A stretch of 64,000 nucleotides of DNA from Oscillospiraceae bacterium. GTDB lineage: Bacteria > Bacillota > Clostridia > Oscillospirales > UBA929. Below are positions 4,865 to 59,103 of the stretch, piece by piece. The stretch lies in contig JAVBOR010000030.1 in NCBI GenBank assembly GCA_031550325.1, positions 11,309 through 75,308 on the forward strand, read 5' to 3'. The notes beneath the pieces were generated by a model. It was not told the origin of the DNA. It made no database searches and saw nothing but the letters and a program-made list of their open reading frames with translations. The position numbers and the translations under genes were made by a program. The first letter of the stretch is position 1. Each line of letters opens with the position of its first letter.

Positions 4865-4990
4865 CTGTAGACAAAGGCCGCCTCTTCGTTCCTTTGCGCA
4901 AAACCACGTCGAGCCTGACGCCGAAGGCGGCGGGTCCATGCTCGGGCGGGCGGCTCTTCGCTTGGGCGGCTCTTCTTGCGTTTTGCGGGG
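4865..4990. repeat. Intergenic repeat locus R1 (truncated copy of the 209-bp composite: left GTAG end plus class III E hairpin)
   Basis: 4865-4937 CTGTAGACAAAGGCCGCCTCTTCGTTCCTTTGCGCAAAACCACGTCGAGCCTGACGCCGAAGGCGGCGGGTCC matches the first ~73 nt of 35508-35716 almost exactly; possible 3' arm GTTTTGCG near 4980. Confidence 0.85.
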
Positions 4991-5004
4991 GCGCATGGTA
5001 CAAT
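4976..5004 (+). promoter_or_regulatory. Candidate sigma-A promoter for the LRR gene (TTGCGT-17-TGgTACAAT)
   Basis: -35 TTGCGT 4976-4981, 17-nt spacer, extended -10 TGGTACAAT 4996-5004; ~23 nt upstream of the ATG at 5027. Confidence 0.35.
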
Positions 5005-5026
5005 GATTCCCAAAGCAGGTGAAACC

Positions 5027-6739
5027 ATGAAAAAAATTGTGCCATGGGTCATCGCGGTGTGCGTGATCATTGCGCTCGCGGGCGGATGGCTTTTATTTGG
5101 CGGGCGGGCGCTGCAGTGGTACTATACCTCGCAGGCCACGCGCGCCATTGAGGAAAACAGGCCCGAGCGCGCGGCGGAAATGCTGCAGAAGCGCTTGGAT
5201 ATGACGCCCGGGGACGACACGCTGCGGCTGCGCCTGGCCGAAATGCTGGCCGGGATGGGCGCGTTTTCCCGCGCCGAGTATATCCTGCATGAGGGCTTGG
5301 AGGAGGCAGCCGACCCCGTACCGTTTTACGCGGCGCTGAGCGCTGTTTTTGTGACGCAGGACAAGCTGTATGACGCGGTGGCGCTGCTGGACGGCGTTAA
5401 AAACCCGCTCACGGCCGAGAAGCTCTCCGCGCTGCGGCCGGCTGATCCGGTGCCGCAGCCCTTGGGCGGCGTGTATCAGCATCTGCTGGAGGTGTCGGTG
5501 ACCGTGCCGGAGGGCTATAGCTGCTATATCTCCTGGGAGGGGGAGATCCCTTCGATAGAGCGGGATAGGTACACGGAGCCGCTGACGCTTCAGCCGGGGA
5601 TTACGCAGGTCAAGGCCGTCATGGTGGATGAGGCGGGAATAGTGTCTGGCTGGGCGGTTGCCGAGTACAGACTGGAAAATGTGCGGGTGCCGCTTACGTT
5701 TGCCGATCCGATGGTGGAGCGCGACGTGCGCGCTGCCCTGAACAAGCCCGAGGGCGAGCTCTATTCGGACGAGGCGGCGGCGCTGACCGAGCTTCATTCC
5801 GTGGAACCTGCGGCGTACAAGACGCTGAGCGACCTGGAACCGCTGACCGGGCTGACGAAGCTCACGCTGCAGGGGCTTGGCGAGCATTGCGATATTTCGG
5901 TTCTGCCGAAGATGGGCAAGCTGGCGGAGCTACGTCTTCAGAGCATGAGCCTGGACTCGATGGATCTTGAGGTCATCAGCCAAATGCTCTGGCTGCGCGT
6001 CCTCTCACTGCCCGAGAACCAGATGACCATCCTCACGCCCCTGTCGGCACTGACAGAGCTCACAGAGCTCAATCTGAGCAGCAACAGCCTGATGGAGCTG
6101 GAGGATCTGCGCGCTCTGACGGCGCTCACAGGGCTCAATCTGGCCGGAAACGCCGTCCAGGACGTGAGCGTGCTGCGGGAGCTGACAGCGCTTAAGTCGC
6201 TTGATCTGTCGGGAAACCGCATCGTGACGCTCGACGGACTGCAGAACATGAAGGCGCTGACCACGCTGTCGGTGGCGCACAACTATCTGAGCGGGCTCTT
6301 TGAAATACAGGGCCTTACGGCTCTGCAGGAACTGGATATCTCAAGCAACGCGCTGACCTCGCTCTCTGCGCTGAGCGCTCTCACTGCTCTGCGCGTTTTA
6401 AAGGCCCCGGGCAATGAGCTTGAGGCCCTGGAGGCGCTGAGCACGCTTGCGGCGCTCGAGACCCTGGACGTGTCGGGCAATCAGATTGCCGCGCTGACCG
6501 GGCTGGAGTCCCTTACCTCGCTCAGCGAGCTGGAGGCCAGCAAGAACAAGATCACCGGCGTCGAGCCGCTTCGCGGGCTCCCGGCGCTTGCTGTGCTGCG
6601 TCTGGAGAACAACGCCGTTCAGACGCTGCAGCCGCTGAAAGACTGCCCAAAGCTCAAGACGGTGTACGCGTTTGGCAACACGCTGACAGATCCGGTCGAC
6701 GCGTTTTCCGGCACGGGCATCACCTTGTACCGCAACTAA
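5027..6739 (+). CDS. Membrane-anchored leucine-rich-repeat (LRR) surface protein
   Basis: Start moved to MKKIVPWVIAVCVIIALAGG (RBS AGGTGA); N-terminal TM anchor, TPR-like helical region, a beta-rich segment, then more than a dozen tandem ~22-aa LRRs (L..L..L.L..N.I..L..L). Confidence 0.8.
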   Translation: MKKIVPWVIAVCVIIALAGGWLLFGGRALQWYYTSQATRAIEENRPERAAEMLQKRLDMTPGDDTLRLRLAEMLAGMGAFSRAEYILHEGLEEAADPVPFYAALSAVFVTQDKLYDAVALLDGVKNPLTAEKLSALRPADPVPQPLGGVYQHLLEVSVTVPEGYSCYISWEGEIPSIERDRYTEPLTLQPGITQVKAVMVDEAGIVSGWAVAEYRLENVRVPLTFADPMVERDVRAALNKPEGELYSDEAAALTELHSVEPAAYKTLSDLEPLTGLTKLTLQGLGEHCDISVLPKMGKLAELRLQSMSLDSMDLEVISQMLWLRVLSLPENQMTILTPLSALTELTELNLSSNSLMELEDLRALTALTGLNLAGNAVQDVSVLRELTALKSLDLSGNRIVTLDGLQNMKALTTLSVAHNYLSGLFEIQGLTALQELDISSNALTSLSALSALTALRVLKAPGNELEALEALSTLAALETLDVSGNQIAALTGLESLTSLSELEASKNKITGVEPLRGLPALAVLRLENNAVQTLQPLKDCPKLKTVYAFGNTLTDPVDAFSGTGITLYRN

Positions 6740-6751
6740 AGCCCTTACGGC

Positions 6752-6972
6752 TGTCAAAGAACCAATGGTTCTTTGACAAAGCGGGGACAGGCTCGCGTCT
6801 TTGTGAAGACGCGTTCCTGCTCCCGTTTGTAGACAAATCGAAGGTTTGTCTACAGACTAAAGGCATTCCCGGAATGAATCCGGGAATGCCTTTTGGTCTC
6901 ATCTTTTGCGGTTTTTATCCCAGAAAGCACCTTGCGGCTGCGCCGTCAGGCTCGGCGTAAAAACCGCAAAAG
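6752..6972. repeat. Intergenic repeat locus R2 (modules A-B-C-D-E, all intact)
   Basis: Hairpins: A 6752-6778 TGTCAAAGAACC-AATG-GGTTCTTTGACA; B 6794-6813 CGCGTCTT-TGTG-AAGACGCG; C 6828-6854 TGTAGACAAA-TCGAAGG-TTTGTCTACA; D 6859-6893; E 6903-6972 with perfect 14-bp outer stem CTTTTGCGGTTTTT/AAAAACCGCAAAAG. Confidence 0.9.
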
Positions 6973-7012
6973 GGTGCGGATGCGTGGGGCTCGTTGACGC
7001 GCGGGCAATGTG

Positions 7013-13597: not shown

Positions 13598-13770
13598 TTC
13601 ACCGCCCCATCATACGTATAAAGACGCCATTGGCTTAGTATAGCACATTTTCAGTATTCATTTCAAGGGAGTTATCCCCTAAAAAGGGACAACTTTGGAT
13701 AATAATCGTCAAAATCTCCGAAAGAAAGCGTCCAAAGCCGCGCCTACGTATGGCCGCAAGTCAATCTTCG

Positions 13771-13836
13771 CGCGTCTTCGCAAAGCCGCGAGCCTGACCT
13801 CAGCTTTGTCAAAAAACCGAGGGCTCTTTGACAAAG
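13771..13836. repeat. Intergenic repeat locus R3a (degenerate B plus A module)
   Basis: CGCGTCTTCGCAAAGCCGCG (B-like) and 13804-13836 CTTTGTCAAAAAACCGAGGGCTCTTTGACAAAG (A-like, degenerate near the loop). Confidence 0.7.
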
Positions 13837-13844
13837 ACTCAGAC

Positions 13845-13995
13845 TGTTGACAAAAGTTGCAGTCGCGATTCCAAAGCTTTTCCGACCAGCAAATCCGGAA
13901 CATTTCGCCGCATTAGGGCGCTTTAGCGCCTCCAATCTTCCGGATTTGACAACTCGCCACTGTGCGGCTTCGGGTCGGAAAAGTCTTTGTCATCA
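13845..13995. repeat. Second repeat family F, copy 1 (~150 bp)
   Basis: Aligns by eye to the reverse complement of 29443-29600 (e.g. GGATTTGACAACTCGCCACTGTGCGGCTTCGGGTCGGAA versus CCATTTGACAACTCACCGCTGTGCGGCTTCGGATCGGAA). Confidence 0.8.
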
Positions 13996-14107
13996 GCCTT
14001 TTTTGCCCATAAACGAATCTAAGCGGCGCGCCCGCAGCTCTGGCCCCGGAAGCGCCGCTCAGAAGTACAAAACCTGGTAAGAAGAGCCCCGCAAGCCTTT
14101 AGCCGCC

Positions 14108-26058: not shown

Positions 26059-26666
26059 CGTTCGGACTCCTCCAACGCGCTTTGCATGGCCTTGAGCGTG
26101 CGTTCCAGCAGGGTGTCCAGCTCGATGCCCAGCATGTCGGCGCCCGCCTGGATGACGCTGCGGGAGCAGCCGGCCGCAAAGCTCAGATTTTTATACTTCT
26201 TTCGAAGCGACGCAAGTTCCATGTCACAGACGCTGCGCGAGGGCCGCATGAGCGCCGCCGCGCCGATCAGCCCGGTCAGCTCATCCACGGCATACAGCAC
26301 CTTTTCCATGACGGATTCAGGCCGGATATCCACGAAAAGGCCATAACCGTGGCTGGCGCAGGCGCGCACGATGAGCTCGTCAACGCCGTGCTCACGCAAA
26401 ATGGCTTGCGTCCTGACGCAATGCTCGTCGGGGAACCGCTCGAAGTCGAGGTCGTGCAAAAGTCCGACGACCGCCCAGAGTGCCTCGTCCTCTCCGAGAT
26501 CACGCGCCCACCAGCGCATCACGCTCTCCACGGTTTGGGCGTGCCGCAGCAGAAAATCCTCCTGCGTATACTCTTTAAGCAGCGCCATGGCCTGCGCGCG
26601 GGAGGGAATCATGGGCCAACCTTCTTTCATAATGGCGTTCAGACTGTCAAAAAAGCTCCCTCGCAC
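26055..26666 (-). CDS. HD-domain metal-dependent phosphohydrolase
   Basis: LLHDLDFE HD motif, HA..VE..M; alternative starts at 26630 or 26612 (MIPSRAQAMALL) are equally plausible. Confidence 0.75.
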   Translation of the reverse strand: MRGSFFDSLNAIMKEGWPMIPSRAQAMALLKEYTQEDFLLRHAQTVESVMRWWARDLGEDEALWAVVGLLHDLDFERFPDEHCVRTQAILREHGVDELIVRACASHGYGLFVDIRPESVMEKVLYAVDELTGLIGAAALMRPSRSVCDMELASLRKKYKNLSFAAGCSRSVIQAGADMLGIELDTLLERTLKAMQSALEESER

Positions 26667-26946
26667 TCCCGCAAACCGCTTCAGCGGGTTGATCCGCTCC
26701 CCGGCTTTGTCAAAGATCCGAAGGGGTTAAGGCAAGCCGGCGCATTCAAGCGCCTTTCGCAGTTTTAGTATAGCACCCCGCATGGGCTAAGGCAAGACGG
26801 TTGTTTTCCATGTAAAGCCGGCGCGTGTACACGCTCTATTATGAATTGACGTGGCCTCTTTGGCTTGGTATAATAATGCGCGTACGCGGCCCGCGGTGAG
26901 AAACGTTGCGCTTCGGGCGAAATGAAGAACCGGGAGGGGGGAGACC

Positions 26947-28329: not shown

Positions 28330-28336
28330 ACATAAG

Positions 28337-28368: not shown

Positions 28369-28552
28369 TTTGTCAAAGAACCTCCGGTTCTTTGACAAAG
28401 CGGGGGTCTGGCTCGCGTCTTTGCGAAGATGCGCAAAGAAATGCTTTCCCGAAGTGAATCCGTGAAAGCGTTGTGGTTCAATCTTTTTCGGCTTTCAGTC
28501 CAGCAAGGACCTGCCGGCTGCGCCGTCAGGCTCGACATGAAAACCGAAAAAG
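28369..28552. repeat. Intergenic repeat locus R4 (modules A-B-D-E)
   Basis: A 28369-28399 TTTGTCAAAGAACC-TCCG-GTTCTTTGACAAA; degenerate B 28414-28433; D 28439-28472; E 28483-28552 (stem CTTTTTCGGCTTTC/GAAAACCGAAAAAG). Confidence 0.9.
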
Positions 28553-28586
28553 GACGAGGACGCGAGGGGTTCTTTAACAACCTAGG

Positions 28587-28625
28587 CCGCCGAAAGCGAA
28601 ACGCTTTCGGCGGTTTATCGTTTTT
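28587..28625 (+). terminator. Canonical rho-independent terminator located after the repeat array, upstream of sigK
   Basis: CCGCCGAAAGCG-AAA-CGCTTTCGGCGG (perfect 12-bp GC-rich stem) followed by TTTATCGTTTTT. Confidence 0.7.
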
Positions 28626-29398: not shown

Positions 29399-29442
29399 CT
29401 CTCCCGGGGCTGCCCAAAGCAGTTGCTCCGCACCTCCCAGGC

Positions 29443-29600
29443 TGATGATTAAACAGTTCCGATCCGAAGCCGCACAGCGGTGAGTTGTCAAATGGGGAAC
29501 ATTTCGCCGCATCCATGCCTTAATGCGGCAAAATGTTCCCCATTCTCTGGTTGAAAAAGCTTTAGAGTCTCGACTGCGAAGGACAAACTTGACAATCAAA
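29443..29600. repeat. Second repeat family F, copy 2 (inverted relative to copy 1)
   Basis: Homologous to the reverse complement of 13845-13995; contains a 19-bp hairpin at 29494-29541 (GGGGAACATTTCGCCGCAT...ATGCGGCAAAATGTTCCCC, 1 mismatch). Confidence 0.8.
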
Positions 29601-31116: not shown

Positions 31117-31159
31117 GTGGGCTGGGGACAGAGGCTGATAAAAGCCCCTCGCATGCTCG

Positions 31160-31378
31160 TCCTTTTCCTGGATTCACGTCGAGCCTGACGCCGAAGGCGG
31201 CGGGTTCTTGCCGGACCGGATCCAGGAAAAATATGAACCACAACGGTTTCGGGAGTTCATTTCTCGAAACCGTTTCTCGTCAAACCGCCTCAGCGGTTTG
31301 ATCCTGCTTTCGTTTTGTCTAAGAACCAAAGGTTCTTTGACAGGCTTAGGCTGCTCAAGAATCTAGGTTCTTTGACAG
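31160..31378. repeat. Intergenic repeat locus R5 (E-D inverted, G, A, plus a half-A inside the CDS end)
   Basis: E 31160-31231 (stem TTTCCTGGATTC/GGATCCAGGAAA); D 31242-31274 (AACGGTTTCG...CGAAACCGTT); G 31281-31300 CAAACCGC-CTCA-GCGGTTTG; A 31313-31343; half-A GGTTCTTTGACA 31366-31377. Confidence 0.85.
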
Positions 31379-35471: not shown

Positions 35472-35503
35472 AGGATCCCCCTTGAGTATTCAAGGGGGAT
35501 CCT
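35472..35503 (+). terminator. Perfect 13-bp hairpin after the vWA gene (possible terminator, no U-tract)
   Basis: AGGATCCCCCTTG-AGTATT-CAAGGGGGATCCT, 19 nt after the stop. Confidence 0.45.
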
Positions 35504-35507
35504 CAGT

Positions 35508-36048
35508 CTGTAGACAAAGGCCGCCTCTTCGTTCCTTTGCGCAAAACCACGTCGAGCCTGACGCCGAAGGCAGCGGGTCCCTGCTGGACTGGTTGAGCGC
35601 AAAGCATGGAAACAAGTGACTTCCACGAATTCACTCCGGGAAAGTCACCCAATGCGCGTCTTCACAAAGACGCGTTCCTGCTCCCGTTTGTAGACAAATC
35701 GAAGGTTTGTCTACAGTCTCAACAAACCGCTGAGGCGGTTTGCAGGGAAACGGTTTTGAGAAATGAATTCCCGAAACCGTTGAGGTTCCTATTTTTCCTG
35801 GATTCAGTCCAGCAAGAACCTGTCACTTGCAGCGCCAGACTCGACGCGAATCCAGGAAAGGGACGAAGGCGCAAAGCTCCGGTTTGACTACAAAACGATG
35901 AAAAGTGATCGGCTCTGTGGAGCCTCCCAAAGAAAGGCTTTCCCGGAGTGAATCCGAGAAAGCCTTTCTATTTCATCTTTTGCGGTTCACATCCCAGAAA
36001 GGACCTTGCGGCTCCGGCCGCAAGGCTCGGCGTAAAAACCGCAAAAGG
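35508..36048. repeat. Intergenic repeat locus R6, largest array (209-bp composite plus G plus two further D-E units plus H)
   Basis: E 35533-35605(-), D 35612-35650(-), B 35655-35674, C 35688-35716, G 35722-35743, D 35746-35782, E 35792-35860, H 35886-35926, D 35932-35968, E 35976-36048. Confidence 0.9.
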
Positions 36049-36135
36049 ACGAGCGCGCGGGACTGTTGCTTTGCACCAAGCTCCAGTAGCTCCTGGAACA
36101 AGGCAGGTGAACACCCCACGCGGAGACTCCAGCTA

Positions 36136-36180: not shown

Positions 36181-36227
36181 TGGAGAGGCCGTGGATGACC
36201 GTGTCGGCGGCGGTTCGGCTGATTTGT

Positions 36228-39503: not shown

Positions 39504-42500
39504 GGCGTATCCCCCTCCCGAAGCGCCTGCCAGAATGACTGAAGCGAAAAGCTCTGCAACGGCGCGTCTTTCTCGCGCGAGGCGTCAAAGTAGCAGCATG
39601 GCGCAAAGTCGCAGTTGTCGCAGGCGCTGCTCTGGCCGCTCTCCCGCACGGGAACGGCGCGAACGTCCCCCCGGATCAGGTCGGAGGCCACCGCGCGCGT
39701 CAGGGCTTCGACGTGACGCCCCAGCCGCGCGAAATCTTCCCGGTCGCCCACCTGAGACCGCTGGTCGAGCTCGCCGCTCTTTTTGCGGTCAAACGGCAGA
39801 AGACCAGCGCCGTCCGGGCCGCTCATCGCCTCCAGCACGGCGTCGTCGGCCAGCAGAAGGCCGCGGCGCTTGAGGCCGGCGGACGGGCCGGGCAGCTGCG
39901 CGCCCGGATGGGACTTTAAGGTGAGAACCTCGTCGCGGGCGGGGACATAGAGCATCCCCGCGGGTTCGATGCGGTCGGCGCCGAACAGCCCGGCCCCCAG
40001 CTTGGCCAGCGTGAACAGATACAGCGGCAGCTGCAGCCCCAGGCCGTGATAGAGCTCCGAGACCGAAAAAATCTTTTTGCCGGTTTTGTAGTCGACAACC
40101 CGAAGATAGAGGGTGCCGTCAGGCCCGCGCCAGCCGTCCACGCGGTCAACCGCGCCCTCGACAAGCGCCGAAAAGCCGCCGGGCAGGCCGTCCACGCGGA
40201 CGGCGGGCAGCTTCCCGCCGCGGTCGGAAAAGCGCAGTTCATAGGCGAGCGGAGAGAACAGGGAAGCTTGCAGCTCGGCCAAAACATCGGCGGCGATGCT
40301 CACCGCCGAGCGGCGCAGCGTGTCGAACAGCCGCGCAAAGCGCCGCGTGTGCCCGGCAAAGCCTTTCAGGACGGTATTCTCGTAGGCGGTCGTATACATA
40401 GCGGCCCAGTCGCGCACCTGTTCGGCGGTCACGTTTGCCGCGCCGCCGGCGAGCTCTGTGTTTCGCCCGGTCTGCTCAAGCATGCCGTGGATAAACGCGC
40501 CGATGTCCAGCGGGGCAAACCCCGGCTGTTCGGTCGGGCGGGCGCGCAGCCCATACTGGCAGAAGTAGGCAAACCGGCAGGTGAACGCGCGCTGGAGTCT
40601 CGTCGCGCTGAAACGCAACTCCGTGCCGTACAGAGACGTGACGGCGTCGGGGGAGAGCGGCTCGCGCAGCTCGGGCGGCGGCGTAAAGGGCCGCACAACC
40701 GGGGGAAGCGCGGTGATCTCCACGCCGCAGAGCGCGCAGGCGCGGCTGAGCACGTCGGCGGGCAGCGCCTTGCCGTCGCCGTCTCTGGAAAAGCTCAGGT
40801 ACAGGGCGTCGGACGGAAGCGTCATGGCGGCATAGAGGTTGAACAACTCGCGCTCCAGCCTCTGCTCGCCGTCCGGCGGCATCTGCAGGTCAAACGCCTC
40901 CAGAACGGCGCGCTCCTCCAGGGACAGCAGCGAGTCGGTGTTCGGCACCATGGGCATCGCGTCGGCGCGCGCGCCGGGCAGAAACACAACGCGGGGCGAA
41001 TGCCGGCGCAGGCGGCCGCACTGGCCGATGCCGACGCGGTCAAGCGCGACCGGAATCGTGCCGACCTGGCAGCCGGACAGCAGCAAGAGCAAAAGATCCA
41101 TAAAGCCGTCCAGGTTCATCGGCGTATCTCCGAGAATCGAGGCGCACTCGTCCAGAGCCTCTACAAAAAGCTCCCAAAGCTGGGCGCACTCGTCGGCCAG
41201 CTTGAGCTCCCCAAGCGACCGAAGCGCCTCGATGCGGCGCTTCAGCGCGCGGTCAACGCGCATTTGCAAAAGGACTTGGAGCAGAAGCTTACTCCAGCCG
41301 GACGCGGTGCGTCCGCCGCGCAGCGCGGACAGCGGCGTGTGGATGAGGGCGCGCATACGGTTGACAAAGATAAGCGCGCGCGTGTCCTCCTCGGTCATCG
41401 TCTCGACATAGCCGCGCGGATGCAGCGTAAACGGTTTTGCCCACTGCGCGCCGTGGGGCCGCCACCGGCGCAGATAGGGCTCAAAGCGGTCAACCTGCTC
41501 GAGCGGCGCGCGGAACAGACCGGTGCGCAGCAGGACAAGCACGTCCTCGCTGCGCCAGCCGTACAGCGTGATGTCGGCGAGGGCGCGCAAAAACTGCGGC
41601 AGAGCTTTGCCGATGACGTCGTCGGTGCTGTCCATAAACACGGGAACGCCCTCGCGCTCAAAAGCCCGCTCAAGAAGCGGGCCGTAGAGGGGCAGGTCGT
41701 TGACGGCCACCTGCATGTCGCGGTAGCGCAGCCCGCCCGCCGCCAGGCGCTGGACTGTCTGGGCGATGACGGCGCACTCGTCCGAGACGGTTTGCGCGCA
41801 CAGCGCAGTGACGGCGCCGCCGCCGTCAACGGACAGCGTGGATCTGTCGAAAAAGTGCGCCTCCAGATGGGCCAGCGCGGGGGCGGAAAAGCGCCTTGGC
41901 TGTGTCAGGACGGTCTGCGTCGCGTCGCCGAGCGCTCTTGTAAGCGCGGCGGCCGTGCGCTGGGCGACCGGGAAGTCCTGACCGTCGGGCAGGCCGCACA
42001 GCGCGCAGAGAATCTGCCCCCGTCCCTGCGAGAACGCGCTCAAAACGTCGATTTCCTGCGGGGTAAACGTGACAAAGCCGTCCAAGAAAAGCCTCTTGTC
42101 CAACGCAAAAAAACTGTGGCGCAGCTTGTCCGCCAGCAGCGTCAGTCTGTCGCGCTTGTCCAGCGGGCCGGAGGCCAGCAGCGCGTTGTAAGAGGCGTAA
42201 ATCAGCGAAAGCTCACGCAATTTCAGCGCGGAGGAGCCCTTGGCCGCGTCTGAGGCCTGATGCAGGGCCTCGGGCGCAATGCCGTAGCATTTACACTCAT
42301 CCACGGTCTGGAGCAGCGAGGCCAAAAACGCGGGCTTGTGGGCGTTTTTGGCCCACAGGCTCAGCTGATCGCGCACCACGTCGACCGCGAGGCGCATGGT
42401 GAGAAGCCGCCCTCCGTCGGAGAGCGGCCGGCGGGCCAGACCGCCCTCCTGTCCAAACACGCGGTCGGCCAGCCGCCCGAACGTGAGCACCTCGGCGTGC

Positions 42501-42673
42501 AGGCAAATGGCCGGGCCGCCGTGCGCCGCCAAAAAACGCTCGCACTCGTGGGAGAAGGGCTCCGGAACAAGCCAGATCAGGCCCTCCTCGCCGTGCGCCG
42601 CGCGCGCGCAGATTTCATTAACGATTGTTGTCGTCTTGCCGCTTCCGGCGCGGCCCCAGAGAAGGTGCAGCAA
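39500..42673 (-). CDS. addB: ATP-dependent helicase/nuclease subunit B (AddB)
   Basis: GRAGSGKT P-loop near the N-terminus; C-terminal nuclease with Cys cluster (CDNCDFAPCC); ATGA overlap with addA. Start placed at TTG 42673 (GGGAGG RBS); the ORF-track extension to 42772 looks non-coding. Confidence 0.85.
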   Translation of the reverse strand: MLHLLWGRAGSGKTTTIVNEICARAAHGEEGLIWLVPEPFSHECERFLAAHGGPAICLHAEVLTFGRLADRVFGQEGGLARRPLSDGGRLLTMRLAVDVVRDQLSLWAKNAHKPAFLASLLQTVDECKCYGIAPEALHQASDAAKGSSALKLRELSLIYASYNALLASGPLDKRDRLTLLADKLRHSFFALDKRLFLDGFVTFTPQEIDVLSAFSQGRGQILCALCGLPDGQDFPVAQRTAAALTRALGDATQTVLTQPRRFSAPALAHLEAHFFDRSTLSVDGGGAVTALCAQTVSDECAVIAQTVQRLAAGGLRYRDMQVAVNDLPLYGPLLERAFEREGVPVFMDSTDDVIGKALPQFLRALADITLYGWRSEDVLVLLRTGLFRAPLEQVDRFEPYLRRWRPHGAQWAKPFTLHPRGYVETMTEEDTRALIFVNRMRALIHTPLSALRGGRTASGWSKLLLQVLLQMRVDRALKRRIEALRSLGELKLADECAQLWELFVEALDECASILGDTPMNLDGFMDLLLLLLSGCQVGTIPVALDRVGIGQCGRLRRHSPRVVFLPGARADAMPMVPNTDSLLSLEERAVLEAFDLQMPPDGEQRLERELFNLYAAMTLPSDALYLSFSRDGDGKALPADVLSRACALCGVEITALPPVVRPFTPPPELREPLSPDAVTSLYGTELRFSATRLQRAFTCRFAYFCQYGLRARPTEQPGFAPLDIGAFIHGMLEQTGRNTELAGGAANVTAEQVRDWAAMYTTAYENTVLKGFAGHTRRFARLFDTLRRSAVSIAADVLAELQASLFSPLAYELRFSDRGGKLPAVRVDGLPGGFSALVEGAVDRVDGWRGPDGTLYLRVVDYKTGKKIFSVSELYHGLGLQLPLYLFTLAKLGAGLFGADRIEPAGMLYVPARDEVLTLKSHPGAQLPGPSAGLKRRGLLLADDAVLEAMSGPDGAGLLPFDRKKSGELDQRSQVGDREDFARLGRHVEALTRAVASDLIRGDVRAVPVRESGQSSACDNCDFAPCCYFDASREKDAPLQSFSLQSFWQALREGDTP

Positions 42674-42803
42674 CCAAAATTCCTCCCAAAATCCGCTGGG
42701 CGGAGAAGATCTGCGCAGGCCGCCCCCGAATGATGCCGGGGGAGGCCTGCGCAATGTAAACCGTCTTCCCAATCCTTGGCGCGCCGAAAGAGTCCATTGA
42801 CAA

Positions 42804-43145
42804 GAGTTTTCCCCGACTCACTCCGGAAAAACCCTCTCTGCAAACCGCCTCAGCGGTTTGATCCAATCCTTCGCTTTGACAAGGAACCGGAGCCCTTTGT
42901 CAAAGGGTGTAAACAGAAGCGGTATCCGCGCTCCTTTGCGCAAAACCACGTCGAGCCTGACGGCGTAGCCGGCAGGTCCTTGCTGGACTGGTTTAGCGCA
43001 AAGGAGCGAAACAAGAGACTTTCACGGATTCATTCCGGGAAAGTCGTTCTCCGCGCGTCTTCGCAAAGACGCGATCTAAGCCCCCGTTTGTAGGCAAACC
43101 GAAGGTTTGCCTACAGCCTGCAAAGAACCGAAGGTTCTTTGTCAG
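42804..43145. repeat. Intergenic repeat locus R7 (D-G-A-E-D-B-C-A)
   Basis: G 42841-42860; A 42874-42905; E 42931-43006 (CTCCTTTGCGCAAAACC/GGTTTAGCGCAAAGGAG); D 43015-43046; B 43053-43073; C 43087-43116 (GTAGGCAAACC-GAA-GGTTTGCCTAC, compensated variant); A 43118-43145. Confidence 0.9.
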
Positions 43146-43152
43146 TTTATTG

Positions 43153-44991
43153 TTATTTTGTTGTCAGTGCGTTATAGAGCTGAACAAACGTGACGTCGGC
43201 CATCTCGCGCGAGAAGGTCATTTTGGGCTCAAAGCCCTTGGCGGTGCCGTTCATGATGCCGTTGGCCGAGACGTAGTCAACAGCGCTCGTTGCCCATGAG
43301 GAGATCGTGGCCTTGTCGGAAAAGCTGTTGGCCGGGGCAGCCGACATGAGCCCGAGCGAGCGCACGGTGTTGGCCAGCATGACGGCCGCCTGCTCGCGGG
43401 TGATGTCCCCGTTCGGGTCGAAGATGGTCGTGGACTTGCCCGCTACGACGCCCAGCTTGTTGGCCGCCACGATGACCTTGTCGCTGGTGTCGGTAAACGT
43501 GTTGGTCGAAAGGTCGATGCCGCGTTCGGCGATCAGCTGGTCGAGCGTTTTGCCGGTCACCGACTCCATGAGCATGACCGCCTGAAGGCAGAACTCGGCG
43601 CGCGTGGCGTTTTTCTTGTAGTCGCCGATCAGCGAAGCGGGGATCAGATTATGGGCGTAAGCCGCCTCGATGTGCACGGTCGCCCACGAGCTGGCCTCGC
43701 CGAGCTTGAGGTCGACAGGAAGCTCGCCGGGCACGCGGACGCCCGACAGAATTTGAACGGGACTCATGCGCCCGGTGGCCGAACCGTCGCCAATCGAGCC
43801 CTCTGTGTTGCTTTGGCCCCAGGACCACAGCGTGCCGTCCTTTTTCAGCGCCAGCGTACTGTAGTTGCTGAGTACGGCGCTTTCAACCCCGTCAAGAACC
43901 TTGACAGGAGCCGAACGGTTTTCTTCGGTGCTGTCGCCGAGCTGTCCATAGAGGTTGTCTCCCCACATCCACAGCGAGCCGTCGGCCTTCAGCGCGCCGA
44001 AATGTACGGCCCCGCTAAAGAGTGAGGCAGCGCCCGTCATCTTCAGCGCCGGCTGGCTTCTGGAGAATACTATTCTGGTCTCGGTTGATTCAACCGAAAG
44101 CGTAGCCTGATAAACGTCTCCGTTTTGCTTAAGCATGACGACATCCTGAATACCGTTGACAATGCTGACCACCCCGTCGGCGTACTTTTCAGGTGTTTCG
44201 ACAAAGTCTACATTGGCGGTTGTGGACGTGACATTTAATCCCTTCACCCCCCAGAACCACACGGTACCGTTGGTCTTCAGGGCAAAGGTCCCTATCAGAT
44301 CTCCGGAAACCGCGGCAACGTCGCTGAGCAGCTGAGACGGGGCCGTCGAGCCGCTTGCTCCCAGATATTCGCTCATTCCATAGTATTTGTCGCCCCAAGT
44401 CCAGAGGGTGCCGTCCAGCTTGACCGCCATGCCCTGGTAGATGTGGATGTCCATGTTGCGAACGCCGTCCATGAGTTTGACCGGGCTCAGCCGGTCCCTC
44501 GTCGTGCCGTCGCCGATCAAACCGTTTGCGTTGCTTCCCCAGCTCCAGAGACTGCCGTCCTTTTTCAGCATCAGCTGCGTCTCGCCGTTTGTAGTGACGC
44601 TTTTGACGTCTTTGGCGATCTCAACGGGGCTCGGCCGATCGACCCTGCTGCCGTCGCCGAGGTAACCTACATTGTAACCCCAGCCCCAGAGCGTGCCGTC
44701 CTTTGTGATTGCGTAGTTGGTTTCGCCTATCGCCATGACGGAGATGACGTCAGTCATGACTTTGACCGGGCTCAGCCGGTCGGTCGTCGTGCCGTCGCCA
44801 ATCTGGCCGTAGTTGTTGAATCCCCAGCACCACAGTGAGCCGTCGGCCTTAATGGCCATGCCGCCGTCCAATCCGGTGTCAAATGTGCGCGTGAGGCGTT
44901 CCTGGGGCGCGACCGCGTCCGCGGCGAGGGCTGGCAACGCTGATAACAGCATGAGAAGGGCAAGAACCAGACAAAGTAATCGTTTTTTCAT
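43153..44991 (-). CDS. Secreted RCC1-repeat beta-propeller protein with three C-terminal SLH-like domains (paralog 1)
   Basis: Signal peptide [23 protein letters not shown] (GGAGGA RBS); repeated GSLW.WG.N..GQ(L/I)GDG units; C-terminal ...[14 protein letters not shown], ...[16 protein letters not shown]. Confidence 0.8.
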
Positions 44992-45132
44992 AATAATTCC
45001 TCCAAAACTAGCAAAGTAGTCTTCACGGCGCGGCCCGCCAACCGTTGCGTCCGGGCGGCGCGTGAAGCTCAAATGTTATTCCCAGATGACGCCCATCGGA
45101 GGTACGCTAAAAAGCCGCCAGGCTCTCCAGCT

Positions 45133-45406
45133 TGCAGACAAAGAGGGCTTTGTCTACAAAACGATGACAAATGATCGGCTCTGTGGAGCCTCATAAAGGA
45201 ATGTTTTCCCGGAGTGAATCCGTGAAAGCATTGCGGTTTAATATTTTGCGGTTTTTGTCCCAGCAAGGACCTTGCGGCTCCGGCCGCAAGGCTCGGCGTA
45301 AAAACCGCAAAAGGACGAGAGCGCGTAAGGTTTATCTTCAGTCTGACGTCTGCCGCCGAAGGCGGCAGACCCTCGTTTTGACAAAGAACCTATGGTTCTT
45401 TGTCAG
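45133..45406. repeat. Intergenic repeat locus R8 (C-H-D-E-hairpin-A)
   Basis: C 45133-45158; H 45155-45192; D 45198-45234; E 45242-45313 (ATTTTGCGGTTTTT/AAAAACCGCAAAAG); hairpin GTCTGCCGCC-GAA-GGCGGCAGAC 45348-45370; A 45376-45406. Confidence 0.9.
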
Positions 45407-45413
45407 TTTATTA

Positions 45414-47222
45414 TCAGTTTGCTGTCAGTGCGTTATAGAGCTGAACAAACGTGACGTCGGCCATCTCGCGCGAGAAGGTCAGTTTGGGCTCAAAGCCCTT
45501 GGCGGTGCCGTTCATGATGCCGTTGGCCGAGACGTAGTCAACAGCGCTCGTGGCCCAGGAGGAGATCGTAGCCCGGTCGGAAAAGCTGTTGGCCGGGGCA
45601 GCCGACATGAGCCCGAGCGAGCGCACGGTGTTGGCCAGCATGACGGCCGCCTGCTCGCGGGTGATGTCCCCGTTCGGGTCGAAGATGGTCGTGGACTTGC
45701 CTGCCGCGACGCCCAGCTTGCTGGCCGCCACGATGACCTTGTCGCTGGTGTCGGTAAACGTGTTGGTCGAAAGATCGATGCCGCGCTCGGCGATCAGCTC
45801 GTCGAGTGTTTTTCCGGTCACCGACTCCATGAGCATGACCGCCTGAAGGCAGAACTCGGCGCGCGTGGCGTTTCTGGTGTAGCTGCCGATCAGCGAAGCG
45901 GGGAGCAGATTGTTGGCGTAAGCCGCCTCGATGTGCACGGTCGCCCACGAGCTGGCCTCGCCGAGCTTGAGGTCGACAGGCGGAAGCGGCATGCCGGTCA
46001 GCACTTTCAGCGGATAGGTGATGTGCGTGCCCAGGCCGGCGTCGTCGACATTCTGTCCGTTCAGGCCGCAGACCCAAAGACTGCCGTCTGTTTTCTCAAT
46101 CATGGTGCTGGTTCCGCTGACAAACGGCAGCGAAAGCACGTCCAGAGACATGGTCTTGACCGGGGCCGCGCGGTCAACGACAGTGCCGTCGCCGAGCTGT
46201 CCGAAATGATTGGTCCCGCGGGACCAGAGCGAGCCGTCCTTGAGAAGGAAGGAGGTCTGCGTCTGCGCGCTGACCATGGACACGACGTTTTCAATCAGCT
46301 TGACGGCGGGCTGGCGCGTCATCGACGTAACGCCGGATTTGGTCTCCGGCGGCGTCTCGATCGTCCAGGCCACGCCGGCGGTATTCAGGTAGTTCAGCGC
46401 GTACAGCTCGGCAGTGACGCCCGTAACGCCGGTCAGCTGCCTGACGGGCGCGGCGTCCAGGGTCACGCTGTCCTTGGCCAGCGTCTTCAGGCCCCAAACA
46501 TAAAGCGTCGAATCCTCGAGGACGGCGCCGGCCAGCGTCTGCCCCAGCGCGAACGCCTTGACGTTTTCCAGCACCTTCACAGGAGAGGTTCCGTCGGTCT
46601 GCGCGCCGAGAAGCCCGTATCTGGACTGGCCCCATGACCAGAGGCTTCCGTCCGTTTGGAGGGCAAGGGTTTGATCGCCGTTGGTGGCGACGTCCAGCAC
46701 ATCGTCCATCACTTTAAAGGGCTCAAGCGGGTTGGTTTTTCCCGCCGCAAGATAGCCGTGGTCGATCCCCCAGCACCAGAGGCTGCCGTCCGTTTGAACG
46801 GCGTAGGTAAACGTCGCGCCGGGCACCACGAGAGAGACGTCCGGGAAAATATAGGTCGGCGTGAGCCGGTGAGCGGCGTCGCCGGTGCCCAGGATTCCGT
46901 TGGTGTTTCTTCCCCAGGCGTAGAGGTCGCCGTTGTCCAGAACGGCAAATGACGAGCGGTTATAGGCGAACACGGCGCGCACGCCGTCCCGCAGGTTGAC
47001 CGGCGAGGGGCGGGCGTTGATGCCGCCGTCGCCAAGCTGTCCATAGTGGTTGGCGCCCCAGGAGTACAACGTTCCGGTGGCGGTGACTGCCAGAAAGTGG
47101 TTCTGCCCGGCGGCGTACGCGTGGCCAAGCCGGTCTGCCGGCGTCTGCGCCGCGAGGCTGTGCCCTGCAAGGGACAGGACAAGTGCGAGGGCCAGCGCGA
47201 TGCTCAGAATTTTGCGTTTCAT
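45414..47222 (-). CDS. Secreted RCC1-repeat beta-propeller protein with three C-terminal SLH-like domains (paralog 2)
   Basis: Signal peptide MKRKILSIALALALVLSLAGHSLA; RCC1-type repeats; C-terminal ~190 aa nearly identical to paralog 1. Confidence 0.8.
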   Translation of the reverse strand: MKRKILSIALALALVLSLAGHSLAAQTPADRLGHAYAAGQNHFLAVTATGTLYSWGANHYGQLGDGGINARPSPVNLRDGVRAVFAYNRSSFAVLDNGDLYAWGRNTNGILGTGDAAHRLTPTYIFPDVSLVVPGATFTYAVQTDGSLWCWGIDHGYLAAGKTNPLEPFKVMDDVLDVATNGDQTLALQTDGSLWSWGQSRYGLLGAQTDGTSPVKVLENVKAFALGQTLAGAVLEDSTLYVWGLKTLAKDSVTLDAAPVRQLTGVTGVTAELYALNYLNTAGVAWTIETPPETKSGVTSMTRQPAVKLIENVVSMVSAQTQTSFLLKDGSLWSRGTNHFGQLGDGTVVDRAAPVKTMSLDVLSLPFVSGTSTMIEKTDGSLWVCGLNGQNVDDAGLGTHITYPLKVLTGMPLPPVDLKLGEASSWATVHIEAAYANNLLPASLIGSYTRNATRAEFCLQAVMLMESVTGKTLDELIAERGIDLSTNTFTDTSDKVIVAASKLGVAAGKSTTIFDPNGDITREQAAVMLANTVRSLGLMSAAPANSFSDRATISSWATSAVDYVSANGIMNGTAKGFEPKLTFSREMADVTFVQLYNALTAN

Positions 47223-52241: not shown

Positions 52242-52367
52242 ACCGTTCCTCCTAAAAATACCAAACAGGCATTAATATTATATACGAACGGCCAAAATAA
52301 TACAAGTACAGGCCCATTCGTTTACAATTAATTCACGTTCGTCAAACGCCCCGCATCTATTTGAGAG

Positions 52368-52415
52368 GCTGATGACCAATAAATCCGACCCAAAACCGCA
52401 CAGCGGCGGGTTGTC
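52368..52415. repeat. Second repeat family F, fragment (copy 3)
   Basis: GCTGATGACCAATAAATCCGACCCAAAACCGCACAGCGGCGGGTTGTC aligns to 29441-29490 GCTGATGATTAAACAGTTCCGATCCGAAGCCGCACAGCGGTGAGTTGTC. Confidence 0.65.
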
Positions 52416-52427
52416 TGCGGCCTGAGC

Positions 52428-54424: not shown

Positions 54425-54425
54425 C

Positions 54426-55673
54426 ATGTCTGTCAAACTGTTGGCGCAGAACTGCAGGCAGGCAGCCGAGCAGCTGCGCATCGCGCCCATCGGGGTGCGC
54501 AACGCCGTTTTGGAGCGCATGGCAAGCATGCTCACAGAGCATCGCGAGCAGCTTCTGGCGGCAAACGCCGCCGACGTGGCGCACGCGCGGGAAAACGCCC
54601 TGAGCGAGGCCATGGTCGACCGGCTGACGCTGAACGCGGCGCGCATAGAGGGCATGGCGGCCGGTCTGCGCGAGGTGGCCGCGATGCCCGACCCGATCGG
54701 CTCGATGGACTTTGTCTCCCGCCGCCCGAACGGGCTTCAGATCGGCTGCAAGCGCGTGCCGCTGGGCGTGGTGGGCGTCATCTTCGAGTCGCGGCCCAAC
54801 GTCACGGTCGACTCGGCTGCCCTGTGCCTGAAGGCCGGGAATCCCTGTTTGCTGCGCGGCGGGAAAGAGGCCATTTCGTCCAACATGGCGCTGGCCGGCC
54901 TGCTGCGCGCGGCGCTTGAGGCCTCCGGGCTTCCGGCCGACTGCGTCTGCCTGGTGGAGGACACTGACCGCGCGAGCGCCGTGGAAATGATGGGGCTCGT
55001 CGGGCTTCTGGACGTGCTTGTCCCGCGCGGCGGCGCGTCCCTGATCCGCACGGTCGTGGAAAACGCGCGCGTTCCGGTCATTCAGACCGGGGAGGGCAAC
55101 TGCCACATCTATGTTGATGAGGACGCCGATGAGGACATGGCGGTCGGCATCGTCGTCGACGCCAAGTGCTCGCGTCCGTCAACGTGCAACGCCGCCGAGA
55201 CGCTGCTGGTTCATCAAAAGATCGCGCCGGGCTTTCTGAAGGCCTGCGCAAAGGCGCTGCTGGAGCGCGGCGTCGAGCTGCGCGGCTGTGAGCGCACGCG
55301 CGCGATTCTGACGCAGGGCGTCAAGGAGGCCACGGAGAGCGACTGGCAGACCGAATACAACGACCTCATTCTGGCAGTGCGCGTGGTCGACGGGCTGTAC
55401 ATGGCCACGGCGCACATCGCAGCGTACGGTACAAAGCACAGCGAGGCGATCGTCACGCGCAACCTCTTCACTGCCCAGCGGTTTATTGACCGCGTTGACG
55501 CCGCGGCGGTGTATGTCAACGCCTCGACACGGTTTACAGACGGCGGGGAGTTTGGGCTTGGCGCCGAGCTGGGCATCTCAACCCAAAAGCTGCACGCGCG
55601 CGGTCCGATGGGCCTGCGCCACCTCACCACCGTTCAGTATGTCGTGATTGGCGAGGGGCAGGTCAGGGGGTAA
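54426..55673 (+). CDS. proA: Gamma-glutamyl phosphate reductase
   Basis: ATG 54426 two nt after the proB stop; GVIFESRPNVT, CNAAETLLVH, ST.FTDGGEFG motifs. Confidence 0.9.
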   Translation: MSVKLLAQNCRQAAEQLRIAPIGVRNAVLERMASMLTEHREQLLAANAADVAHARENALSEAMVDRLTLNAARIEGMAAGLREVAAMPDPIGSMDFVSRRPNGLQIGCKRVPLGVVGVIFESRPNVTVDSAALCLKAGNPCLLRGGKEAISSNMALAGLLRAALEASGLPADCVCLVEDTDRASAVEMMGLVGLLDVLVPRGGASLIRTVVENARVPVIQTGEGNCHIYVDEDADEDMAVGIVVDAKCSRPSTCNAAETLLVHQKIAPGFLKACAKALLERGVELRGCERTRAILTQGVKEATESDWQTEYNDLILAVRVVDGLYMATAHIAAYGTKHSEAIVTRNLFTAQRFIDRVDAAAVYVNASTRFTDGGEFGLGAELGISTQKLHARGPMGLRHLTTVQYVVIGEGQVRG

Positions 55674-55675
55674 GG

Positions 55676-56128
55676 CTGTCAAAGAACGTGTGCTTTCGCT
55701 TTGTGAAAGCACACGTTCTTTGACAAAGCGGGGGTTGGATCAAACCGCTGTGGCGGTTTGCAGAGTAGGGCGTTCCCGGAATGAATCCGGGAACGCCCTA
55801 AGACTGTAGACAAACCTTCGATTTGTCTACAAACGGGAGCAGGAACGCGTCTTTGTGAAGACGCGCATTGGGTGACTTTCCCGGAGTGAATCCGTGAAAG
55901 TCACTTGTTTCCATGCTTTGCGCTCAACCAGTCCAGCAGGGCCTAGCCGCCTTCGGCGTCAGGCTCGACGTGGTTTTGCGCAAAGGAACGAAGAGGCGGC
56001 CTTTGTCTACAGGCAGACAAACCGAAGGTTCGATGGGAAACGGTTTCGAAGAGTGAAATCCCGAAACCATTGTGGTTCATTTTTTTTGGATTCAATCCAG
56101 CAAGAACCTGTCGGCTGCGCAGCTGAGA
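55676..56128. repeat. Intergenic repeat locus R9 (A-G-D, 209-bp composite, then a D-E unit)
   Basis: Extended A 55676-55728 (20-bp perfect stem GTCAAAGAACGTGTGCTTTC/GAAAGCACACGTTCTTTGAC); G 55741-55760; D 55766-55800; C 55804-55832; B 55845-55865; D 55871-55904; E 55915-55987; D 56036-56073; truncated E 56082-56128. Confidence 0.9.
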
Positions 56129-59100: not shown

Positions 59101-59103
59101 AGC

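Follow-up and report, generated by a model that had tools for sequence, protein, structure and literature searches.

The palindromic modules scattered between the genes of the window, the 64,000-nucleotide stretch of Oscillospiraceae DNA analysed here, are pieces of one non-coding, MITE-like mobile repeat of about 220 bp. Together they make up a new family that has colonised intergenic gaps and belongs to an ordinary type of genomic parasite. We consider it probable that these repeats are the copies and decayed pieces of a non-autonomous element specific to an uncultured Oscillospiraceae lineage.

The element is composite. The inverted repeats at its two ends (TCAGNCTGT...ACAGNCTGA) are imperfect, the left terminus reading TCAGNC-TGT… and the right terminus …ACA-GNCTGA; the window contains 15 terminus matches against 1.45 expected. 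In HP1 the left terminal repeat forms a hairpin with an inward copy of its right counterpart, and a spacer separates HP1 from HP2, a short GC hairpin. HP3 carries the conserved loop GGARTGAATCC, and HP4 is an imperfect hairpin of about 70 nt with an invariant core, followed by a tail (GGACGAG…) and the right terminus. Alignment A1, built from seven copies of a related metagenome-assembled genome (MAG) and six copies of the window, is collinear over 233 columns with a mean column identity of 77%. The modules had been described in the earlier note as standing in varying order and orientation, but in alignment A1 they are alternative versions of four ordered hairpins with fixed positions in the composite unit: HP1 is of type A or C, HP2 of type B, G or H, HP3 corresponds to D and HP4 to E. 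The apparent disorder results from whole elements lying on either strand, truncation, tandem bodies and one inversion-like mosaic (6750-6998).

Repeat search and sequence reading recovered the family at each of the nine loci listed previously and at a tenth one (26639-26745) missing from that list. By the coordinates determined here, the repeats occupy about 2.68 kb (4.2% of the window), in agreement with the total given in the earlier note (~2.7 kb, ~4%). That repeats fill nearly every larger gap was somewhat overstated: ten loci do carry them, but four gaps (21945-22060, 52242-52427, 56136-56436 and 59101-59318) are without any copy of the ~220-bp family. Nor is the window purely housekeeping, as it also encodes AddAB, efflux pumps, a glycolysis cluster and surface-type proteins (SLH, LRR and RCC1-repeat in a domain scan of its ORFs). 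The repeats greatly exceed chance: the HP3 pattern TTCCCGRARTGAATYCGNGRAA occurs six times against 0.00 expected (100 shuffles). Covariance model R1, spanning the spacer, HP2 and HP3, gave 10 window matches (64-88 bits, E 1e-16 to 1e-22), and model R2, spanning HP4, gave nine (75-96 bits, E 1e-17 to 1e-22) and one truncated match, all of them intergenic. The family was unmatched in Rfam at gathering or E-value thresholds, and no plasmid, phage or literature match to the element was found. The proposal that these intergenic palindromes are a real repeat family absent from catalogues is borne out, and its independence of genes, CRISPR and ordinary terminators is upheld; tRNAs are likewise excluded as its source.

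Besides six complete copies, the window has halves and fragments of the element, bodies in tandem and HP1 hairpins on their own. The type A/B element at 28369..28592 (+; R1 76.5 bits, R2 95.7 bits; A1 row W28369) comprises HP1-A, HP2-B, HP3, HP4, the tail and a degenerate right terminus, and directly follows the terminator-like hairpin of a MATE gene (28337-28364). A type A/G element (31130..31350, -; R1 78.3, R2 86.7 bits; row W31350r) lies between convergent genes and is followed by a stray A-type arm (31351-31378). Three elements are of type C/B. Two of these measure 219 bp and are 96% identical, namely 35503..35721 (-; R1 79.9, R2 91.5 bits; row W35721r), which is the ~209-bp composite of the earlier note and adjoins a host hairpin (35473-35502) at its right end, and 55799..56017 (+; R1 86.5, R2 88.0 bits; row W55799). 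The third (42906..43120, -; R1 77.1, R2 91.8 bits; row W43120r) has a degenerate right terminus. The type C/H element (45128..45346, +; R1 82.3, R2 83.3 bits; row W45128) retains both termini (CAGCTTGCAGACAAAG … TTTATCTTCAGTCTGA).

Incomplete copies lie both beside these elements and at separate loci. Two tandem bodies share one copy of the direct repeat a' (TTTGACTACA): 35722..35884 (+; R1 64.5, R2 74.9 bits) lacks HP1 and consists of HP2 of G type, HP3, HP4 and the tail, and 35885..36060 (+; R1 85.7, R2 77.7 bits) consists of the spacer, HP2 of H type, HP3, HP4 and the tail, with 88% identity to 45149-45325 (repeat family D8). Half elements of HP1, HP2 and HP3, matched by R1 and not by R2, were found at 42800..42905 (-; HP1-A, HP2-G; 64.9 bits), some 130 nt before the start of addB (42673, as annotated for the database protein P0121, 1057 aa), and at 55676..55798 (+; long A-type HP1, G-type HP2; 88.3 bits), whose end is the exact start of the next element at 55799. 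That element is followed by a partial copy of HP3 and the 5' part of HP4 (56018..56135, +; repeat families D12 and D14; weak R1 match 55983-56074), cut off at a host hairpin (56122-56168). Solo A-type HP1 hairpins stand at the 3' ends of the two RCC1/SLH genes: 43121..43150 (+; repeat families D3, 96%, and D9) lies within a 300-bp duplication common to 45382-45681, and the other is 45376..45413 (+; D9 and D3). The fragment 4860..4949 (-) retains the tail and the right terminal repeat (…CTTTGTCTACAGGCTGA) behind the 3' two-thirds of HP4, with an R2 match at 4904-4949 (38.5 bits) and 96% identity to 35501-35585 (repeat family D5); it adjoins the terminator-like hairpin of the upstream gene (4833-4859). 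In the mosaic copy (6750..6998, +), an A-type HP1 (6750-6781) and a B-type HP2 (6794-6813) are followed by an inverted C-type 5' end on the minus strand (6814-6860), HP3 (6860-6893) and HP4 with the tail (6893-6998), with a partial R1 match at 6836-6895 (39.8 bits) and an R2 match at 6893-6979 (85.9 bits). The truncated copy at 13758..13838 (-; repeat families D9 and D20) runs from an A-type HP1 through the spacer and a B-type HP2 to the start of HP3 (weak R1 match 13747-13805, 19.5 bits). The tenth locus is a short, decayed copy (26639..26745, -) without HP3 and HP4, with a degenerate A-type HP1, a G-type HP2, the right terminus TTTTTTGACAGTCTGA, a terminus match, a D9 member (26708-26742) and a weak R1 match (26664-26706).

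A second family, F, has a different body and the same ends as the ~220-bp element, in both the window and the MAG. Its copy at 13839..14000 (+), inserted at the foot of the preceding A hairpin, has termini (TCAGACTGTTGACAAAAG … CTTTGTCATCAGCC) matched to those of the element, with 77% identity to 29439-29577 and 73% to 5236-5397 of MAG locus L032. The second window copy (29436..29600, -) is 77% identical to 13859-13999 and has the same type of terminus and the other body.

The Oscillospiraceae MAG EPI_MAG_00258, the nearest available relative of the window, contains at least 20 copies of the ~220-bp element, with pairwise identities of 89-97%, at loci unrelated to each other, and several copies lie at the end of a contig; these near-identical copies are a young burst. 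When MAG copies were aligned with their flanks, similarity started and stopped at sharp borders. The copies prefer gene 3' ends and are found, in both orientations, there or between convergent genes. A relative lacks any copy at its orthologous addBA locus. For the window's own organism, the Logan contig breaks off within the repeats to either side of addBA. The earlier note had considered that the modules might be confined to the window or its genome, or be assembly artefacts, but the unit recurs in three independent assemblies and one Logan read assembly.

In the related genome, the element also has what appears to be a less ordinary habit: it inserts next to terminator hairpins, which become duplicated. 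Direct repeats of 14-31 nt, which are palindromic host hairpins, flank 6 of 10 complete MAG copies, whereas mismatched flank pairs taken as controls shared at most 11 nt (n=90). At L032 the order is hairpin, element, hairpin, family-F element, hairpin, and at L018 the right flank has just one arm of the hairpin. The remaining 4 of the 10 young MAG copies have no flanking duplication, short or long, and none was seen at any window copy; the window copies at 4860, 28369 and 35503 adjoin host hairpins.

Considering these results, our best reading is that a non-autonomous transposon is moved in trans by a putative transposase that, like that of IS1630, targets hairpins. A transposase encoded elsewhere would bind the shared termini and attack DNA at the foot of palindromic (terminator) hairpins; staggered cuts on either side of the palindrome, followed by repair, would duplicate it, as for IS1630 of the IS30 family. 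Hairpins abound in the elements themselves, so that an old copy may draw new ones to its side, which would account for the arrays at 35.5, 42.8 and 55.7 kb. Through the direct repeat that the right terminus forms with the right arm of HP1, the body may be lost or gained in tandem; HP1 would be left on its own in the first case, and tandem bodies would arise in the second. The short (9-17 nt), imperfect terminal repeats count against this reading, as do the young MAG copies and the window copies without a flanking duplication and a one-strand excess of G:T over A:C mismatches in the window copies. No transposase was found among about 50 window ORFs in a Pfam or NCBIfam scan, and tblastn with IS30, IS5, IS1 and rve-type proteins gave no match in 374 kb of sequence, so that the mobilising enzyme and its family are purely inferred.

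Secondary structure bears on what else the element may do. Compensatory double changes occur in 21 of 43 stem pairs of HP2-HP4; an entirely selfish element that moves by cut and paste would not require so many, which is a further point against the main reading. Stem cells are paired in 96% of cases (0/500 shuffles as high; slid controls 36-49%), the HP3 and HP4 cores are invariant among copies 62-71% identical, and the copies fold with an energy about 5 SD lower than that of a small mononucleotide-shuffle control set, with the aligned strand the more stable in 9 of 13 copies. Half units (HP1-HP3 or HP2-HP3) in sense orientation 10-130 nt upstream of start codons, found in several genomes (at addB in the window and at L002, L005 and L016), hint at function as a folded single strand or RNA. 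All these features would suit a role in the host as structured RNA or as a module acting at RNA level, for example in stabilising 3' ends, as a 5' leader or, for HP3, in binding a protein, the mobile traits being secondary or the element domesticated, and bcr1 of the Bacillus cereus group is a transcribed MITE-like precedent with compensatory changes (PMC3184786). We nevertheless regard this explanation as unlikely: complete copies have no fixed orientation relative to the adjacent genes (11 sense and 6 antisense in the MAG, mixed in the window), no promoter-like or terminator-like consensus was found inside the elements, the copy beside addB is missing from the relative's orthologous locus, many copies are cut at arbitrary points, and unrelated loci carry near-identical ones. 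For the transposon moved in trans, the internal hairpins would persist through selection acting on the element, or on how well its transcription is tolerated, and would be no independent RNA gene.

Less plausible still is movement as single-stranded DNA, in the manner of REPs or REPINs, by a Y1 transposase (RAYT or IS200/IS605 type) reading the hairpins and GTAG/CTAC. In its favour, the hairpins are conserved by compensatory change, a one-strand excess of G:T over A:C mismatches (16 vs 5 in window copies) fits a structure read on one DNA strand, and the C-type terminus does have GTAG/CTAC. This GTAG is base-paired within the HP1 stem rather than an unpaired tag, however, and copies of A type and family F have TGTC or TGTT in its place. 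The element has inverted termini and, at 6 of 10 young MAG copies, long flanking direct duplications, which Y1 transposition does not produce. Its location downstream of genes is REP-like (PMC3733652), but four different hairpins in ~220 bp contrast with a 20-40-bp palindrome or REPIN doublet. No Y1_Tnp domain or RAYT gene was found among about 50 window ORFs. The REP/RAYT lead of the earlier note is not supported. Ordinary look-alike terminators with local duplications, or misassembly of metagenome bins, are already effectively refuted, for although copies sit at gene 3' ends and the genomes are MAGs, the unit recurs in independent assemblies, covariance-model E-values reach 1e-22, no T-tract terminator pattern is present, and misassembly cannot yield copies that diverge with compensatory changes.

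Several known systems resemble the ~220-bp element in part. The BOX repeat of Streptococcus pneumoniae and S. suis is composite, with optional or alternative modules, terminal inverted repeats and no known transposase; strong folding, enrichment in convergent gaps, clustering and insertion of one copy into another are further traits of BOX (PMC3049150). The mosaic make-up, alternative modules and inverted termini of our interspersed element agree with the likeness noted earlier, but variation in BOX lies in how many boxB copies stand between boxA and boxC, whereas our element has a fixed four-hairpin order with alternative sequences at each position, and there is no sequence similarity. A REP is 20-40 bp long, has GTAG or CGTC as its unpaired tag and is associated with a RAYT gene (PMC3733652). 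Intergenic palindromes downstream of genes, clustered and in both orientations, are common to REP/BIME/REPIN and our element, of which one subtype has GTAG; the differences are the ~220-bp unit, a paired and dispensable GTAG, inverted termini and no RAYT among the window ORFs. The A-type arm GGTTCTTTGACAAA agrees with the published IS6/IS26-family terminus consensus GGTTCTGTTGCAAA at 11 of 14 positions (PMC6807381). The arm is oriented the wrong way round, its GG end facing inward; G7 and G10, both conserved in the consensus, are unmatched and no 8-bp duplications were seen, and we treat the resemblance as chance or a distant relic.

The bcr1 and related group A repeats of the Bacillus cereus group are Firmicute MITE-like, non-coding, multi-hairpin elements of about 155 bp with compensatory changes (PMC3184786). 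Our element is also non-coding, scattered between genes and maintains a multi-hairpin fold by compensatory changes, but bcr1 has two stem-loops, 5-bp flanking direct repeats and an unrelated sequence, in contrast to four hairpins and flanking repeats that are hairpin-sized or lacking. IS1630 of Mycoplasma fermentans (IS30 family) is described as flanked by variable direct duplications of 16-26 bp that are target inverted repeats or terminator-like hairpins (PMC2853133, PMC3317919; Calcutt et al. 1999). IS1630 is autonomous, about 1.4 kb long, with 27-bp inverted repeats and an IS30-type transposase, whereas here solely non-coding elements of ~220 bp occur; no IS30-like gene is present in the 374 kb, just TGTAGA is common with the E. 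coli IS30 terminus, and the tie to IS30 is by analogy. What our element and IS1630 have in common is the duplication itself, of 14-31 bp and of whole host hairpins, at 6 of 10 young MAG copies.

Palindromic repeats were recovered, by repeat search and by direct reading, at all nine loci where the earlier note had placed them, and a tenth locus that it overlooked was found at 26639-26745. Its total of about 2.7 kb also holds: the pieces delimited in the present analysis sum to ~2.68 kb (4.2% of the window). The statement that nearly every larger intergenic gap is occupied is somewhat too strong, as the main family is lacking from those at 21945-22060, 52242-52427, 56136-56436 and 59101-59318. 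The window has a G+C content of 60% and codes for SLH, LRR and RCC1-repeat proteins, AddAB, a WalK-like kinase and a pgk-tpi-gpmI-eno cluster. In this sequence the pattern of the third hairpin (HP3) occurred six times, against none in 100 shuffles. Two covariance models constructed from the element copies themselves were searched against the window with filters off: R1 (spacer, HP2 and HP3) gave 10 matches at 64-88 bits, and R2 (HP4) gave nine at 75-96 bits plus one truncated match, all R1 and R2 matches being intergenic.

The repeats had been described as short modules in varying order and orientation, a description that we replace: as at the loci of a related Oscillospiraceae genome, EPI_MAG_00258 (JAVBTT01, GCA_031556035.1; hereafter the MAG), the window modules are parts of one ~221-bp unit, the main element. 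Six window copies were collinear with the MAG copies across 233 columns of an alignment of seven MAG and six window copies (A1). The unit has four successive hairpins, of which the terminal HP1 corresponds to the former modules A or C, HP2 to B, G or H (H including the preceding spacer), HP3 to D and HP4 to E. Complete copies lie at 28369-28592 (+, type A/B), 31130-31350 (-, A/G), 35503-35721 (-, C/B), 42906-43120 (-, C/B), 45128-45346 (+, C/H) and 55799-56017 (+, C/B). They are accompanied by HP1-HP3 halves at 42800-42905 (-) and 55676-55798, bodies without HP1 at 35722-35884 and 35885-36060, fragments at 4860-4949, 13758-13838, 26639-26745 and 56018-56135, a mosaic at 6750-6998 whose 5' end is inverted, and solo HP1 hairpins at 43121-43150 and 45376-45413.

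We regard the main element as probably a MITE-like mobile element, on the evidence of its size, inverted termini, copy number and non-coding nature. MITEs are non-coding, 50-800 bp long, and typically have terminal inverted repeats of at least 10-15 bp. Complete copies of the main element measured 194-224 bp and were non-coding. When ten complete MAG copies were aligned together with flanks of 120 nt, imperfect inverted termini became visible, 5' TCAGACCGATGACAAAC… and …GACTTTGTCTACAGTCTGA 3', and the terminal inverted repeats, left TCAGACYGWWGACAAA and right TTTGTCTWCAGTCTGA (a pair also written TCAGNCTGT / ACAGNCTGA), are imperfect and 9-17 nt long; the outermost TMAGNC-TGT was common to A-type and C-type copies. 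Copies were dispersed and numerous with sharp borders, at least 20 in the MAG, and 10 R1 and 10 R2 units in the window. The right terminus recurs in direct orientation as the right arm of HP1, and the body is thus flanked by direct repeats. From this arrangement we infer an origin for the solo HP1 hairpins and for the tandem pair at 35722-36060, whose bodies have one repeat copy in common: direct repeats around the body would account for both.

Open reading frames of 65-228 aa overran the repeats at 26082-26768, 28302-28727, 35606-35887, 35905-36198, 42776-43093, 45069-45266 and 55943-56284. Their third-position G+C was 0.42-0.66, against 0.68-0.84 in confidently called genes; they are low-GC3 chance frames, likely to be spurious calls that annotators could mistake for small genes. 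The longest addB ORF (39500-42772, -) begins 33 codons upstream of the start of an identical database protein of 1057 aa, which lies at 42673, so that with this start the repeat-bearing intergenic gap measures ~480 nt and not 380. A 300-bp direct repeat of 96% identity (43121-43420 and 45382-45681) spans the 3' ends, encoding SLH-domain parts, of two paralogous RCC1-repeat/SLH genes on the minus strand (43153-45072 and 45414-47222) together with the solo A hairpin that follows each gene. This looks like the product of a recent event, either gene conversion or the duplication of a gene end.

The distribution of copies argues for mobility. When 185,579 species genomes were scanned for the HP3 pattern, 20 of the 36 matches listed fell in the MAG, and the taxonomic range is a lower bound. 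The at least 20 MAG copies had common sharp borders and were placed at the 3' ends of genes or between convergent genes, in both orientations (11 sense vs 6 antisense), several of them at contig ends. Pairwise identity was 89-97% among MAG copies, 57-76% among window copies (one pair reaching 96%) and 62-71% between the two sets, which points to recent multiplication in the MAG and, in the window, to older copies in decay. The window Pgk is identical to a database protein, and the nearest relatives, at 79% identity, were Oscillospiraceae MAGs, JAVBTT01 among them. Reads of the window's organism, assembled independently (Logan SRR23967709), gave a contig of 6841 nt, equivalent to window ~36030-42870 with addBA, that stopped at both ends within the repeat arrays flanking addBA. 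A third bin, EPI_MAG_00130 (contigs JAVBPF01), carried two diverged complete copies and one half copy, and no copies were present in 54 kb of pgk regions from three relatives.

Insertion sites in the MAG had a particular character. A direct repeat of 14-31 nt, itself a palindromic hairpin, flanked six of the ten complete MAG copies and mostly adjoined the element on both sides (31 bp at L015, 24 at L029, 23 at L007, 16 at L018, 15 at L004 and 14 at L032, all palindromic), the longest being GTTATCCCCCCGCTGAAAGCGGGGGGATAAC. As a control, left flanks were paired with the right flanks of other loci; such pairs had at most 11 nt in common (n = 90). At L032 the order was hairpin, main element, hairpin, element of a second family (family F), hairpin. 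MITE target-site duplications are usually short (2-10 bp); around the ten complete MAG copies no short duplication was found, and four had no duplication of any kind. In the window, the copies at 4860, 28369 and 35503 adjoined host hairpins, and no flanking duplications were seen around window copies. We infer that the target mechanism may be staggered cuts around a palindrome: if an extruded or symmetric palindrome were cut at its foot, the stagger would span the whole hairpin, and the elements' own hairpins would draw further insertions, giving arrays. Of a specific hairpin-targeting DDE mechanism we are distinctly less sure than of the mobile-element reading.

The fold of the element appears to be maintained. 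RNAalifold applied to A1 predicted HP2, HP3, HP4 and a pairing of the left with the right end. Of the cells in the 43 HP2-HP4 pairs, 96% were paired, whereas shuffles gave 84% and slid controls 36-49%. Both-sided changes occurred in 21 of the 43, and the observed values were attained in none of 500 shuffles. Folding energies were -85 to -100 kcal/mol, against -68.7 ± 5.2 in a small mononucleotide-shuffle control of one copy. Pairing, double changes and folding statistics together argue that the hairpins are under selection. On the aligned strand the window copies had 16 G:T vs 5 A:C mismatches, and in 9 of 13 copies this strand folded more stably than its complement; both observations hint weakly at strand specificity. 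These data also bear on a different reading, in which the four hairpins would fold into a scaffold, of ssDNA or RNA, that acts in cis in structure-directed transposition, or the HP2-HP3 half a domesticated regulatory RNA or leader. The scaffold reading draws on the compensatory change kept across copies of 62-71% identity and on the one-strand G:T bias; the fold would be required by a structure-specific transposition system that also chooses hairpins as targets. We judge this reading improbable; if true, a cruciform- or hairpin-directed transposase, so far described only for one Mycoplasma IS, would have the element as its non-autonomous partner.

Half units (HP1-HP3 or HP2-HP3) were also observed in sense orientation 10-130 nt upstream of start codons in several Oscillospiraceae MAGs, at L002 4916-5004 (-), L005 2744-2817 (+), L016 2225-2310 (+) and L019 3240-3331 (+), as well as at window 42800-42905 (-). 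In at least three cases the genes downstream were by appearance glmM, ylxR and flgC, and such halves may have been domesticated, as a leader or as a hairpin close to the promoter.

To return to the MITE-like element, its termini were found on a second body. Family F, of ~160 bp, has a body unrelated to that of the main element, including a GGAACATTTCGCCGC…GCGGCGAAATGTTCC hairpin, and the same termini, TCAGACTGTTGACAAAAG … CTTTGTCATCAGCC. Its copies lie at window 13839-14000 (+) and 29436-29600 (-), with a fragment at 52366-52415, and in the MAG at L032 5236-5400, with an F-like copy at L006 ~4007-4170. One set of ends on two bodies is what trans-mobilisation by a single transposase predicts, and family F was probably moved by the putative transposase of the main element. 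Two other repeats were noted. The MAG has a further short repeat, …CTCTCCG(G/T)CGCTTCGCGCCACCTCTCCC-NNNN-GGGAGAG…, at L010 5447-5520 and at L023 3700-3768 and 3990-4030; it holds an inserted main element in L023 and stands in place of the 3' half of another element in L010. In an unrelated metagenome contig, JGI Ga0196972_1008164 (L038, 973-1005), a lone hairpin GCGCTTTCCCGGAGTGAATCCGGGAAAGCGC lies behind a gene; its 17-nt core is that of HP3, the rest of the element is missing, and the likeness could be due to chance or to an HP3-like motif of wider occurrence.

Neither a transposase nor a Y1/RAYT domain was detected in the ~50 window ORFs, and no RAYT gene flanked by the repeats was found among them. 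The 374 kb of sequence examined contained neither homologues of IS30, IS5, IS1 or rve nor a cognate autonomous IS with matching termini. An IS30 origin was considered, but the E. coli K-12 IS30 terminus has only TGTAGA in common, and tblastn with E. coli IS30 InsI gave nothing at E below 2 in the loci examined. For IS6/IS26, the A-type arm matched 11 of 14 positions of the published terminus but points the wrong way, and this origin was rejected. A guide RNA (omega RNA or bridge RNA) was rejected as well, since near-identical MAG copies lie beside quite different hairpins and thus have no variable guide segment matching targets. An sRNA gene or terminator was dismissed on finding no promoter-like or terminator-like consensus within the elements, and a conserved leader, proposed for the half copy upstream of addB, on finding no copy at the addBA locus of one relative (AddB 51% identical).

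The family is uncatalogued in Rfam 15, with no match at or above the gathering threshold in the whole window; permissive E-values produced noise only (best 22 bits vs thresholds of 50-60). The MAG consensus had no BLAST match among 72,556 plasmids and 50,697 phages, IMG/VR viral contigs and JGI metagenome contigs lacked the HP4 pattern, and the HP3 pattern had one match in JGI metagenomes, an unrelated hairpin. In a full-text search, six diagnostic 12-14-mers retrieved only unrelated primers.

For uncultured gut and anaerobe Clostridia, catalogues of small interspersed repeats are poor. The main element breaks metagenome assemblies, with contigs of two assemblies ending inside it, and yields spurious ORF calls; that alternative hairpin versions, solo hairpins and tandem bodies are all traceable to one element is of use for annotation and masking. 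Duplication of whole terminator hairpins at the flanks, if confirmed, would show that a rare target mechanism of a Mycoplasma IS is also used by a clostridial MITE, and would make the element a natural system in which to study transposases guided by DNA structure and not sequence.

The main element is not a new kind of system. REPs are palindromes of 20-40 bp with an unpaired GTAG (or CGTC) tag (PMC3733652), whereas in the ~220-bp main element GTAG lies in the HP1 stem, paired with CTAC, and is dispensable, being missing from A-type and F copies; the main element thus lacks the features that define REPs. The mosaic make-up is like that of BOX, which consists of boxA, boxB(n) and boxC modules (PMC3049150), but the architecture differs, with four ordered hairpins and no tandem boxB-like unit in the main element, and the likeness is an analogy only. 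Its conserved multi-hairpin fold resembles that of bcr1 (PMC3184786). In target choice it resembles IS1630, of the IS30 family, in that palindromic direct repeats of variable length flank the element at six MAG loci, as the duplication of a target inverted repeat on insertion would give.
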